Assembly (NCBI GenBank): GCA_031258095.1
Contig: JAIRNK010000024.1
Span: forward strand, 1-50,289
DNA from: Holosporales bacterium
GTDB lineage: Bacteria > Pseudomonadota > Alphaproteobacteria > BNTO01
Reading direction: 5' to 3'
DNA length: 50,289 nucleotides
Made by a program: the position numbers and the translations under genes. Shown here one piece after another: positions 37,356 to 41,779 of the stretch. Below the pieces are notes generated by a model. That model did no database searches. It had not been told where the DNA came from and saw nothing but the letters and a program-made list of their open reading frames with translations. Positions within the stretch are counted from its first letter, which is position 1; each line of letters opens with the position of its first letter.

Positions 37356-39674
37356 TCAGCCTATCATATTGAACCCGCCCTTTAGTGCAGCGATCATTCC
37401 CCCTTGTGTCGTAGACATAAGGCTTCCATCCAGCGTTGCCTGAAGACCGCAATATTTCCCTTCTATTGTCCCTTTGCACTCCACCGTCAGACCTTCCAGC
37501 GTCGCGCCGATGGTCGCCTTTGCTCCCCAGTTCAACCCTTCCCCGCTCCACGCGACTTGCGCTTTTTGGTTAACGTTCAACCCCTCGATGTTGTGATCCA
37601 TTGTGGCTTTCTGCGATATGTTCATCCCTTCCGTAATGACGTCCATCGTCGCTTTTTCCGTAATGTTTTTTGTCGCGGTAATTTTTATTTCTCCCGTTGC
37701 GGTTATCTCAACATCTTTCGTTGCGGTTAGTAAGATCGAGGCTTGTGACTCAAATGCGATATCCTTTTGTGCCGTTACAGTTAAGCCGGCATCTGTTGTT
37801 ATTGCGATGTCTTTTTTGGCGGTAATCGTCATTTCGCCATCTTCGAAATTCATGATGTAATTGCCTTTTTTAAGGGTAATTACTTCATCTCCATCCTCTA
37901 GCTCAATTGTGAGCGACCCTTTTTTCAACGCGATTGAGTAATTTCCTTCCTCTATCGTCGTCTTTTTCTCACCCTTGGTAATTGTTGTTTCTAGCAAGCC
38001 ATCAACAATTTGTAGCTGATTGGTGGTCTTTTCCCCTTCTTGCTTAACCAAAAACGTATTTTCATTCGCAATTGACGACAATTCAAAATCTTTTGTCGCC
38101 TTAAACGTAATCTTTTCGTTCTCATCAGTATCGTCAAAGCTCATGACATTGGCGTTTTCATCTTTTTCCGGCGACGTCTTTGTTTTTAGCATCATGATGC
38201 GCGGCTCAGCAGGAACCTCGGCTGGCATTTTGTTGTCACCGTTGTACAAGCAGCCGATTATGACTGGGAGGTCCGGATTCCCATTTTCAAATGTTATAAG
38301 CGCTTCCATCCCAATGCGCGGAATGAAGGCTAGGCCAAAGCCATTCCCTGCCCAACCTTGCATGCATCGAACAGGGCACCCGTTGGCGCCGTCATATTCT
38401 CCTTCCCTATCCCAGTTAAATTGCACAAAGACGCGGCCTTCTTCATCGCAGTGAACTTCCTTATCGCTTGGGCCGACAACGATAGCCGTTTGAAAGCCGT
38501 AAGCCTTTGGTTTGGGAGTATTTCTCGGCGGGGCGAAGGGAACGTCAAACGGTAGCGCTGTGAATTTGTTTGTGTACCGCAAATATCGTTCATTTCTATT
38601 TGTTGTCGGGGCAGAAAAGGCGATTCGATGTTCAACAGAGTGAACTAAATATTTTTGATTTAAGTCGCTGCGTGCATGGTTTTCGACTGCAAACGCTGCG
38701 CCCGCCGCGAAATCCAGAACGGATCCTTCCCCGAACGCTAATTTCCCCGGCCAAACAATTTCTTCCAGCCGCTTGGCTCCAACTGTGCTGGCTCCGTCGC
38801 TGTCTATGTAGCCGCCAGGGTATTCATAAACTTCTCCGCCAAGGCCCTCGCCACTTTCTGCCGCTTTGAACAGTGCGCCTGGAGTCATGTAGTAAAAGTC
38901 TACGGCTGCAAAATCTTTGGCAATAATTTGATTCTGCGCGTTGAACATGGTCACGCAATTGACGGCATTCGTTCTAACCACGGTCATGTCGCACGGATCA
39001 ATATCAGTCGCGGCTTTGTTCGCATCCGCTAGTATCATCGTTGCGCCTGAATCAGCGAATTCGAAAAAATAAAAGATGCCTTCTTCTTCCATAAGGCGCG
39101 ACACGAAATTGTAGTTGGATTCGTTGTATTGCACGCAATACTCTCGCACCACTTTGCCTGCTGCGTTGACATTGTTGGTAAACGTGACATTGTCTTCTTG
39201 CAATACTGTTTCTATGATTTCGATTGTCGTTTTTTTCGAAAAGATGCGGAACGTTTTGTTTAACGTTGCGACCCAAAACTCCGGGCGCAACACAACGGAG
39301 TAATACGCGAACCCGGATTCACTTGACGCATCAACAATGTACGATGGCAATGCTCTTGCCTTTGCTACAATTCCCGCAAAAACGCGTTTCTTTTCTGTCT
39401 TTTGTAGCGTTATCGTTATAGCGACCTTTTCGCCCAGCAACTTGGATAAATCCAACGCTGAATCTGTCGAATACAGCCGTGCGTGGAATTCGAACAGAGA
39501 GGACAGCCCTTCGTGTCCAACCATACTGTCGAACAGTAAGTCCCCACCAGCAGGGCTTGTTACCTCAACCATTAACCCCTGGAGGGTTGTTGGCAGTGGG
39601 AACGGAGACAGCGGAACTTCAGCTAACGGGTCGTCAATTCTGTCTGGCGCATCGCGCCTGTAATTCGGAATCAT
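37356..39674 (-). CDS. vgrG: Type VI secretion spike protein VgrG (gpD/gp5-like core plus C-terminal beta-helix repeats)
   Basis: N-terminal LLFDSMVGHEGLSSLFEFHARLYS. gp5 OB-fold GFQTAIVVGPSDKEVHCDEEGRVFVQFNWDREG...CMQGWAGNGFGLAFIPRIGMEALITFENGNPDLPVIIGCLYN. C-terminal repeats ITAKKDIAITT/VTAQKDIAFES/LTATKDVEITA. Confidence 0.88.
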   Translation of the reverse strand: MIPNYRRDAPDRIDDPLAEVPLSPFPLPTTLQGLMVEVTSPAGGDLLFDSMVGHEGLSSLFEFHARLYSTDSALDLSKLLGEKVAITITLQKTEKKRVFAGIVAKARALPSYIVDASSESGFAYYSVVLRPEFWVATLNKTFRIFSKKTTIEIIETVLQEDNVTFTNNVNAAGKVVREYCVQYNESNYNFVSRLMEEEGIFYFFEFADSGATMILADANKAATDIDPCDMTVVRTNAVNCVTMFNAQNQIIAKDFAAVDFYYMTPGALFKAAESGEGLGGEVYEYPGGYIDSDGASTVGAKRLEEIVWPGKLAFGEGSVLDFAAGAAFAVENHARSDLNQKYLVHSVEHRIAFSAPTTNRNERYLRYTNKFTALPFDVPFAPPRNTPKPKAYGFQTAIVVGPSDKEVHCDEEGRVFVQFNWDREGEYDGANGCPVRCMQGWAGNGFGLAFIPRIGMEALITFENGNPDLPVIIGCLYNGDNKMPAEVPAEPRIMMLKTKTSPEKDENANVMSFDDTDENEKITFKATKDFELSSIANENTFLVKQEGEKTTNQLQIVDGLLETTITKGEKKTTIEEGNYSIALKKGSLTIELEDGDEVITLKKGNYIMNFEDGEMTITAKKDIAITTDAGLTVTAQKDIAFESQASILLTATKDVEITATGEIKITATKNITEKATMDVITEGMNISQKATMDHNIEGLNVNQKAQVAWSGEGLNWGAKATIGATLEGLTVECKGTIEGKYCGLQATLDGSLMSTTQGGMIAALKGGFNMIG

Positions 39675-39686
39675 GGCTTGCTATAA

Positions 39687-40316: not shown

Positions 40317-41779
40317 GAAGTCCCTTCTTCAGTGTCTTCCAGAATCACGCCTAATTCAAGTAGCTCCCGTCTAATGTCGTCTGCTCGCTCGTAGTCCTTA
40401 TTTTGTTTGGCTTTCTTTCGATCTTCTATTTTCTGATTAATCAGCTCCACGTCTACAGCTGCAATCGAGTCGCTTTGAAACCACGACGCAGGGGAGTTGT
40501 ACAATATGCCGAGCATGCGTCCGCAGTAGAAGATTGATATGTACAGGTCGTCTGTTGGTAATTGATCGTATGCTTGGACCATCTTGTTAAGATGTTGTAT
40601 GGCCAGCGGTGTATTCAAGTCATCGCACAATGCGCTCAAGAAATCTTGCGACAGCTCGTTTATTTTGTCCATGTTCTTCGCGAATACTGGATCTTCTCCA
40701 GGGGCACTTTCGAGAACATCAGTTTTCGCAAAATCTTCGTCGAGTGCACTGGCATGCGCGTCGTCAAACAAGTCATTGTAAATGTCTTTCTTTCCGAGGA
40801 TGCGATACCACTTGTTCAATTGCTGCTGCGCCATTATTGTCAGCTGGTATGTCCAATCTAACGGTTGTCTGTAATGCGTCGAAATAAGAGTCAGGCGCAC
40901 CACCTCTGCTGGGTGCTTTCCGAGCAACTCCCTCACAGTGAAAAAGTTACCCAAAGACTTCGACATCTTCTGCCCATTGATCATCAAGTGCCCATTATGC
41001 AGCCAAAACCGCGCCATCTCGGGCTGCCCTGACGCACCGCAACTTTGGGCGCGCTCGTTTTCATGATGCGGGAATATCAGGTCTATCCCCCCGGCGTGTA
41101 TGTCAAAATATTCTCCCAAATAGTGGGCGCTCATAGCGGAGCATTCGATGTGCCACCCTGGTCTTCCATAGCCCCATGGACTTTCCCAGCCGGGGATGTG
41201 CCCCGTAGAGGGTTTCCATAGGACGAAATCCCCTGGGCTTTTCTTGTACGTCGCGATTTCGACCCTTGCGCCTGCCAGCAACTCTTCGGGCGATTTTTTG
41301 GAGAGTTTTCCATATTCCGGATATTTGTCGACCTCGTACAGGACATGTCCTTGGGCTTCGTACGCAAACCCTTTGTCTATTAGTGTAGAAATCATCGAAA
41401 TCATTTGTGGGATGAATTCGGTGGCTCTTGGCCGATACGTTGGTGAGCACACGTTCAGCATGTTCATATCGGTCACAAACTCGATTTCAAATTTTTTCGC
41501 AATCTCTGAAAAATGACACTTTTTCTCAACGCTTGCGGCGTATATTTTGTCGTCTATGTCGGTGATATTGCGCACATATATGACCTTTTCGTAGCTGTGT
41601 CGTAGTAGCCTGAAAAGGACATCAAAAACCACCATCGCACGAGCGTTCCCCAAGTGGGCGAAGTCGTATACGGTCGGTCCGCACACATACATGCGCACGG
41701 GACCTGCTGCGCCTGCGTCATCGAGCGGTGAAAAGACTTCCTTTTGGCGCGATAGGCTATTGTATAAGATGATATTCAT
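40301..41779 (-). CDS. cysS: Cysteine--tRNA ligase
   Basis: HLGNAR (HIGH) and KMSKSLGN (KMSKS) class I motifs; 492 aa. Confidence 0.96.
   Translation of the reverse strand: MNIILYNSLSRQKEVFSPLDDAGAAGPVRMYVCGPTVYDFAHLGNARAMVVFDVLFRLLRHSYEKVIYVRNITDIDDKIYAASVEKKCHFSEIAKKFEIEFVTDMNMLNVCSPTYRPRATEFIPQMISMISTLIDKGFAYEAQGHVLYEVDKYPEYGKLSKKSPEELLAGARVEIATYKKSPGDFVLWKPSTGHIPGWESPWGYGRPGWHIECSAMSAHYLGEYFDIHAGGIDLIFPHHENERAQSCGASGQPEMARFWLHNGHLMINGQKMSKSLGNFFTVRELLGKHPAEVVRLTLISTHYRQPLDWTYQLTIMAQQQLNKWYRILGKKDIYNDLFDDAHASALDEDFAKTDVLESAPGEDPVFAKNMDKINELSQDFLSALCDDLNTPLAIQHLNKMVQAYDQLPTDDLYISIFYCGRMLGILYNSPASWFQSDSIAAVDVELINQKIEDRKKAKQNKDYERADDIRRELLELGVILEDTEEGTSWRKQ

Follow-up and report, generated by a model that had tools for sequence, protein, structure and literature searches.

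Structure of the cysS-BON-vgrG locus

The sequence analyzed here is the contig JAIRNK010000024.1 of an uncultured Holosporales bacterium (assembly GCA_031258095.1; 50,289 nt), which is referred to as the window. The subject is its vgrG gene, encoding a type VI secretion system (T6SS) spike protein, which follows cysS and a gene for a protein with two BON domains. The locus is composed as follows (positions are those of the window; AA, amino acids; ORF, open reading frame):

40301..41779, minus strand: cysS, cysteinyl-tRNA synthetase of 492 AA, leading the unit; Pfam tRNA-synt_1e (1e-117) and CysS_C
40301..40314, minus strand: cysS/BON junction with GGAGGA (40314-40309), AACA and GTG (40304-40302); the cysS stop codon TGA is at 40303-40301
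39687..40304, minus strand: dual-BON gene, 205 AA, DolP/YraP-like, probable lipoprotein; the longest ORF, starting at 40316, would encode 209 AA
39675..39686, minus strand: BON-vgrG spacer of 12 nt, TTATAGCAAGCC, which leaves no room for a terminator or promoter
37356..39674, minus strand: vgrG/tssI, T6SS spike of 772 AA without toxin domain
37317..37355: vgrG-pgk spacer of 39 nt between convergent stop codons; pgk ends at 37316

An ORF check agreed with an earlier note on this DNA concerning the position and common orientation of the three genes, and reproduced both the 12-nt gap between BON and vgrG and the 39-nt spacer to the convergent pgk. An overlap of 16 nt between cysS and the BON gene, as given in that note, presupposed the longest ORF. 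The GTG codon at 40304 is preceded at a distance of 4 nt by the ribosome binding site GGAGGA and overlaps the cysS stop codon in the sequence GTGA. Gene calling carried out independently on L001 also gave the 205-AA product, with the same GTG start; this Logan contig of 9,450 nt comes from SRR14710907, is 100% identical to positions 32674-42123 of the window and ends inside repeats on both sides. Furthermore, the junction string TGGAGGAAACAGTGA is identical in a second species, represented by contig L175. Because of the spacing of GGAGGA, the gene call on L001 and the conservation in L175, the predicted overlap is most likely 4 nt (GTGA), which is a classic translational-coupling arrangement.

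By sequence inspection, no clear Shine-Dalgarno sequence was found before vgrG in the 12-nt spacer. A terminator scan gave no convincing intrinsic terminator in the 39-nt spacer between vgrG and pgk. The window also contains the rho gene (29685-30962), so that Rho-dependent termination after vgrG is possible.

Identity and domains of VgrG

The earlier note had taken the 772-AA ORF to be a VgrG protein, and searches with profile hidden Markov models agree with this assignment. Phage_GPD (PF05954) was matched at 1.9e-68, with residues 54-351 covering positions 1-301 of the 305 profile positions, and the OB-fold domain Phage_base_V (PF04717) at 5.3e-10 (39.9 bits, cutoff 23.8; residues 410-477). 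Scores for the NCBIfam models TIGR03361 (449.7 bits, cutoff 186.35) and TIGR01646 (333 bits, cutoff 121.8) were far above threshold. In the C-terminal third, Gp5_trimer_C (22.7 bits, cutoff 30.9) and DUF2345 (28.3 bits, cutoff 30.7) were found below threshold. Alignments with solved T6SS VgrG spikes have E-values of 1e-64 to 7e-69 and cover residues 35-540 or 41-629, the alignment with 9MLP being the one which extends to residue 629, and a Francisella VgrG covers residues 605-728. By sequence, the ORF is a bona fide TssI/VgrG.

A spike of an extracellular contractile injection system (eCIS) or of a prophage baseplate (Afp8/Pvc8/gp5-gp27) was considered and rejected. Pvc8 and its relatives show similarity to the protein at E-values of only 3e-4 to 5e-4, in the OB region, and the window contains no tail, sheath or baseplate genes. 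The rejection rests also on relatives in which vgrG adjoins the T6SS-specific gene tssL/DotU. A prophage baseplate family, which the earlier note had named as the result that would change its call, was accordingly not favored by the homology search, which placed the protein with the VgrG proteins of T6SS.

All alignments with solved spikes start at residue 35-41 of the query. The N-terminal extension of the clade to which the protein belongs (residues 1-35; positions 39570-39674 in the window) is absent from the solved spikes and carries the motif PNYR-x-D...DPL..VPL.P.PLP.

Constraint and composition of vgrG

The gene was compared to four orthologues, all of which are full length and intact. 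Non-synonymous and synonymous differences per site (pN and pS) are given instead of dN/dS, since synonymous sites are saturated; pN was 0.13-0.24 and pS 0.76-0.86. The most constrained parts of the protein are the gp5 helix (pN 0.075) and the C-terminal extension (pN 0.11). GC content is 0.476 for the whole gene and 0.51 at third codon positions, and codon usage correlates with that of the rest of the window at r 0.79, compared to a window mean of 0.68. Hence, vgrG is intact, compositionally native and under strong purifying selection.

Search for further T6SS genes in the window

The window is a housekeeping region close to the replication origin, containing obg, ftsA, murJ, the RNase J gene, dnaA, serC, parAB, yidC, rho, nth, pgk, bioB and genes for a sigma factor, an MshL/PilQ-like secretin and a penicillin-binding protein. 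All ORFs of ≥ 150 AA were scanned with Pfam, and the unassigned ones were rescanned with NCBIfam and relaxed Pfam thresholds. Intergenic ORFs of ≥ 45 AA were catalogued and plausible ones were scanned. In these profile scans of the 50-kb window no Hcp, PAAR, TssA-M, ClpV or adaptor family was detected, which extends to the whole window the absence of T6SS genes reported before for about 10 kb around vgrG. Directly adjoining vgrG, whose neighbors are BON, cysS and pgk, there is no PAAR, adaptor (DUF4123, DUF1795, DUF2169) or toxin/immunity gene.

Genomic context of vgrG in related bacteria

The nearest homologues of the protein are found in metagenome-assembled genomes of Holosporales. They form a clade of about 27 proteins with 45-89% identity to the VgrG of the window; beyond this clade, the VgrG proteins of Paracaedibacter, Odyssella, Finniella and unrelated phyla follow at about 33-36%. 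Almost all Holosporales conserve a T6SS, which is non-standard, misses some components, and apparently does not have the outer-membrane lipoprotein component (PMC11909080). Its core genes are spread over at least four loci, with vgrG apart from them (PMC8163844), and it is thought to target the eukaryotic host (PMC8163844, PMC11909080). The contexts of vgrG in the clade are (identity of VgrG to that of the window in brackets):

L092 (89%, partial): vgrG, ORF without assignment, tig
L006/L007 (78%): dnaX, vgrG, gene for a 568-AA ankyrin protein, insertion sequence
L091 (73%): divergent ankyrin protein gene, vgrG
L009 (70%): bamA, vgrG, convergent gene for a leucine-rich repeat (LRR) protein
L008 (64%): ruvC, tssK, tssL, vgrG
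L002 (62%): atpHAGD, vgrG, portal gene
L005 (52%): nusA-infB, vgrG
L003/L004 (50%): spoT, vgrG, gp25/tssE, aroK, serS

A separate contig from the sample of L002, L089, carries tssK-tssL at the same GC content of 33%. Thus, T6SS core genes are present in the clade and are scattered among housekeeping genes. An isolated vgrG without tss neighbors is therefore the expected state in Holosporales. The earlier note had called the context of vgrG unusual; this holds with respect to the non-classical setting, but the element of surprise is lost, since Holosporales scatter their T6SS genes.

Ankyrin or BspA-type LRR proteins are encoded directly next to vgrG in four relatives of the clade (L006, 12442-14148 and 205-1191; L091, 3911-4861; L009, 5313-6257; L173, 398-724) and are plausible host-directed cargo of the T6SS. 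In L002, a Phage_portal gene (12849-14072) lies 500 nt downstream of vgrG and probably belongs to a gene-transfer-agent cluster; clusters of a similar kind have reportedly been found in protist endosymbionts. The 22 kb around vgrG in L010 (CP165730.1, 29443-51686), a complete genome of 1.33 Mb, contain very few long ORFs, which suggests either heavy pseudogenization or indel errors of a long-read assembly.

Further T6SS genes of the same genome

A TssK protein (P0124), 70% identical to the TssK of L008 used as probe, is encoded on L090, an 11.6-kb contig from SRR14710907, i.e., the sample which also contains L001. Since this sample holds a second, more distant member of the clade (L174), identity tiers were determined relative to the L008 proteins. 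For the single-organism pair L002/L089 the values are 63% for VgrG and 72% for TssK. The VgrG of L174 is 48% identical to that of L008, which predicts a TssK tier of 53-61%; P0124, at 70%, fits the subclade of the window. In addition, L090 opens with 44 nt of the B2 repeat of the window at 89% identity, a repeat which no locus of a sister species has. Of the 175 loci, L001 and L090 are the sole ones with matches to repeat families of the window, in both cases at contig ends. A comparison of tetranucleotide composition and GC content was compatible with this origin but non-discriminating (r 0.87 between L090 and the window, 0.87-0.94 for chunks of the window, 0.94 for a sister species). Based on the identity tier and the B2 repeat as a fingerprint, the tssK contig was assigned to the organism of the window, to whose genome it probably belongs. 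This genome probably carries further T6SS genes.

The tssK gene of L090 has a tolC-like gene and uvrB as neighbors and is not accompanied by tssL. Directly upstream of tssK, on the same strand, lie an ORF of 1,498 AA without family match (151-4647) and, following it, an ORF of 113 AA; the former could be an unrecognized T6SS component or effector. Among the unassigned ORFs near tssK or vgrG in L090, L173, L008 and L089, no T6SS family was detected in a profile scan.

With these data, the possibility raised in the earlier note can be assessed that vgrG was left stranded by the decay of a T6SS or phage-tail-like system; such a remnant would no longer be functional. The 50-kb window indeed holds no second T6SS gene, the genome carries many dispersed repeats and belongs to a rearranged lineage, and tssK without tssL in L090 hints at cluster erosion. 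Against decay stand the full-length ORF with a pN/pS of about 0.17 over the four orthologue pairs, at saturated synonymous sites, and its native codon usage. About 27 intact homologues exist in the clade, tss genes adjoin vgrG in relatives, and intact tssK, tssL and tssE genes occur in relatives and probably also in the genome of the window. Even the smallest Holosporales genomes retain a T6SS (PMC11909080). Decaying vgrG pseudogenes in relatives, which would have favored a remnant, were not encountered among the four orthologues compared, which are all full length. A remnant is considered very improbable.

Conservation of the gene trio and the question of an operon

The contig L175 (SRR14710922), which carries the closest homologue of the BON protein (P0183), is collinear with the window at a DNA identity of 74.5%. 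The C-terminal 360 AA of its CysS are 85% identical and its BON protein is 83% identical to those of the window; here too, GGAGGA precedes a GTGA overlap of the two genes. After a BON-vgrG gap of 9 nt, the first 135 AA of VgrG follow, which are 77% identical to the protein of the window compared to 70% for P0002 from the same sample. The C-terminal VgrG fragment (89%) on contig L092, which stems from the matching JGI sample, probably represents the missing half of this gene. Thus, the trio with the same junction recurs in a relative. Downstream of vgrG, pgk is found in the window, and an ORF without assignment followed by tig in L092; that the trio stays together while the downstream flank apparently differs favors an operon. 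The arrangement cysS-BON-vgrG was absent from about ten other vgrG contexts of the clade, from about 80 distant vgrG loci and from 80 distant cysS loci, although the latter, obtained in a metagenome scan for CysS which saturated on universal motifs, all of ≤ 58% identity and all without a BON gene or vgrG, are uninformative about the clade.

Promoter-like sites in the region of the trio numbered 8, compared to 7.4 expected after shuffling, and terminator-like sites showed no excess either. By themselves, these counts speak neither for nor against co-transcription. In the 12-nt gap between BON and vgrG, the scan gave neither a terminator-like nor a promoter-like site. Tight spacing, the conserved trio with its junction, and the lack of an excess of promoter- or terminator-like sites are the reasons why an operon is favored, and cysS-BON-vgrG likely forms a lineage-specific one. 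Of the three possibilities put forward in the earlier note, co-expression of vgrG with a housekeeping gene is the best supported, as judged from sequence.

The adjacency could also be merely positional, with vgrG using its own promoter in or after the BON gene and cysS-BON being an independent pair. A promoter-like site within BON (39940..39912), the 12-nt spacer without an obvious Shine-Dalgarno sequence and the strong variation of vgrG contexts among relatives point in this direction. However, promoter-like sites are as numerous as expected by chance, no terminator-like site separates the genes of the trio, and the three-gene packing and the junction have been kept at 74% DNA identity beside an apparently different downstream gene. 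Merely positional adjacency is therefore regarded as rather unlikely.

The BON protein and its possible link to the T6SS

The product of the BON gene contains two BON domains (PF04972; 1.8e-23, 83 bits). It matches the NCBIfam model PRK11023 (DolP) with 92.3 bits, which is under the cutoff of 184, and its best solved match is YraP of E. coli (7A2D, E-value 2e-15), covering both domains. In 15 homologues, Cys29 is invariant behind a hydrophobic leader. The box at this cysteine reads LTRC, LSRC or LTQC in near relatives; the canonical forms LAGC, LTGC and LSAC occur only in distant ones. From its sequence, the product is classified as a DolP/YraP-like envelope protein, not as a demonstrated equivalog, and is a probable lipoprotein.

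The earlier note had suggested the BON protein as a functional partner of the spike. In its specific form, the protein would be a dedicated envelope partner of the T6SS, e.g., an outer-membrane anchor replacing TssJ, and would be co-expressed with vgrG. In two species vgrG directly follows the BON gene, after gaps of 12 nt and 9 nt, and in a more distant relative (L173; VgrG 50%, BON 53% identical) the BON gene lies 2.5 kb from vgrG in another configuration. The invariant cysteine at the lipobox position and the apparent absence of an outer-membrane lipoprotein component from the T6SS of Holosporales (PMC11909080) also fit such a role. On the other hand, the two genes of L173 are divergent and separated by three small unassigned ORFs, and no BON gene was found within up to 10 kb of vgrG in about ten other loci of the clade and about 80 more distant vgrG loci. 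Among the BON homologues on contigs of 18-111 kb, none has the size of a contig carrying a VgrG of the clade; the sole size match is a 6,512-bp contig. In addition, its alignment with the housekeeping protein YraP/DolP of E. coli runs from end to end, and a literature search gave no functional link between BON domains and T6SS. The idea of a partner is thus backed by the adjacency in two species and the proximity in a third, but weakened by the type of the protein and the many contexts without it, and a dedicated role is judged very improbable. About as improbable is the extended proposal that a DolP-like BON protein was recruited to stand in for the missing TssJ and that the operon has been kept for joint production of spike and anchor at a housekeeping level.

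Proposed function of the locus

Taken together, vgrG is quite probably a functional spike of a scattered, reduced Holosporales T6SS, situated within a probable cysS-BON-vgrG operon. The 772-AA ORF would be the VgrG/TssI of the reduced T6SS which Holosporales symbionts typically keep, with genes lying alone or a few together amid housekeeping genes. In the lineage of the window, vgrG would have come to sit directly downstream of cysS and the DolP-like BON gene. One mRNA would then cover all three genes, with translation of BON coupled to that of cysS via the GTGA overlap, and production of the spike would be steady, as for a housekeeping protein; the remaining T6SS machine would be encoded elsewhere in the genome. 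We infer co-transcription, a complete T6SS in the genome of the window and activity of this T6SS.

Several points weigh against this interpretation. The T6SS of Holosporales is non-standard with components missing (PMC11909080), and its activity is presumed. Besides vgrG, tssK alone among T6SS genes has been connected with the organism of the window, by a link that is good but circumstantial. One sample contains two distinct vgrG genes (L175/L092 and L006/L007), and some differences in context between relatives may accordingly reflect paralogues and not rearrangement. Finally, the promoter-like site inside BON (CTGACA-17-TATGCT, 39940..39912, about 240 nt before the ATG of vgrG), although at chance level, and the absence of a clear Shine-Dalgarno sequence make an independent or weak expression of vgrG possible.

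A lone vgrG amid housekeeping genes of a reduced symbiont genome should, hence, not be mistaken for a novel or decayed system. Documented here is the tight cysS-dolP-like-vgrG unit in two species, which suggests that the spike of an obligate symbiont can be wired into a constitutive housekeeping transcript. The recurrent minority linkage of BON and vgrG makes the BON protein a candidate partner in the envelope of a T6SS that reportedly lacks TssJ, and the ankyrin and LRR proteins recurring beside vgrG in the clade are of interest as plausible cargo directed at the host.

Upstream region and other features of the window

The region upstream of cysS contains the duplicated promoter-like elements described in the earlier note, which were located as a tandem pair. 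The repeats of the window are:

41780..42771: intergenic region between cysS and the secretin gene, 992 nt, with tandem repeat copies at 42031-42285 and 42301-42555
1-141, 7970-8169, 31310-31512, 42031-42285, 42301-42555: A-family repeat, five copies in the window, 200-255 nt
149-244, 3387-3478, 3480-3569, 4682-4739, 7741-7830, 7853-7943, 9560-9639, 10494-10590, 12238-12337, 13623-13715, 31568-31657, 31660-31755, 32614-32703: intergenic repeats of about 90 nt, two related families, at least 13 sites

The tandem copies are 98% identical and each has a TTGACT-18-TATTTT site facing cysS. In the A family, a conserved promoter-like head (TTGACT...TATTTT) precedes a core, about 125 nt long and with hardly any variation, ATTGAGGTGTGCGGTGGGCAAAACCGC...GGGTGGGTGGGGG...AATTCGTTAATGCCCGCTTTTTAGG. 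Since the window holds five dispersed copies of this repeat, a promoter specific for the operon was rejected as an explanation. The repeat may represent a small-RNA gene in multiple copies or a miniature inverted-repeat transposable element with an outward-facing promoter. Neither the repeat nor the region upstream of cysS matched Rfam; in the whole window, the Rfam search returned two tRNA-Arg genes and nothing else. In spurious intergenic ORFs, the repeats of about 90 nt become visible as pseudo-peptide motifs that recur (P-x-D-V-P-G, SHRTLRVLLKFKAL). Both L001, the short-read contig of the same strain, and the tssK contig L090 terminate in such repeats.

Six ORFs of the window matched no Pfam or NCBIfam family (5023-6633, 13724-14482, 27195-28343, 28325-29647, 34864-35970 and 49574-50179). 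Two of these, 27195-28343 (382 AA) and 28325-29647 (440 AA), overlap each other and lie between yidC and rho. The one nearest to vgrG, 34864-35970, was considered as an ankyrin-type effector and rejected: it has no Pfam or NCBIfam match at an E-value of ≤ 1 and is unlike the ankyrin protein of L006. A 117-AA ankyrin protein is encoded at 22203-22556, 15 kb from vgrG. The MshL/PilQ-type secretin gene (42772-44580; TIGR02519 208 bits, below cutoff; Pfam Secretin 1.5e-29) is solitary, divergent from cysS and without pilus genes nearby, which fits the 'incomplete type IV pili' described for Holosporales.

Comparison with known systems

With VgrG1 of P. aeruginosa (PDB 4MTK/4UHV), the protein shares the gp27-like domain, the gp5-like OB domain and probably the beta-helix (residues 35-540, E-value about 1e-64). 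It differs by about 35 additional N-terminal AA, which are common to the clade, and by about 230 additional C-terminal AA, which are rich in repeats and resemble DUF2345 and the Francisella VgrG. Unlike canonical spikes, it is encoded outside any T6SS cluster or vgrG-adaptor-effector-immunity island.

DolP/YraP of E. coli (PDB 7A2D) and the BON protein have in common two BON domains, which align end to end (residues 33-194 with 5-166), and an invariant cysteine behind a hydrophobic leader. Instead of the canonical G, A or S, near relatives have R or Q in front of this cysteine. The context with cysS upstream and vgrG downstream bears no known relation to the dolP locus of E. coli.

The closest parallel in genome organization is the dispersed T6SS of Bodocaedibacter, Paracaedibacteraceae and Caedimonadaceae (PMC8163844, PMC11909080), which belong to the same order. 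Shared with these are a vgrG apart from the core genes and small core modules amid housekeeping genes, the module tssK-tssL being seen in relatives of the window. The VgrG clade of the window is 33-36% identical to the VgrG proteins of Paracaedibacter, Odyssella and Finniella. Whereas the published vgrG module is [ywqK-vgrG] (PMC8163844), a DolP-like BON gene in a likely cysS operon is upstream in the window; in scans with Pfam and NCBIfam, BON is the sole family matched by its product, and not YwqK. The vgrG locus is an ordinary member of the known Holosporales pattern, and compared to the published modules, dispersal has gone further in the subclade of the window, where tssK can occur without tssL (L090).

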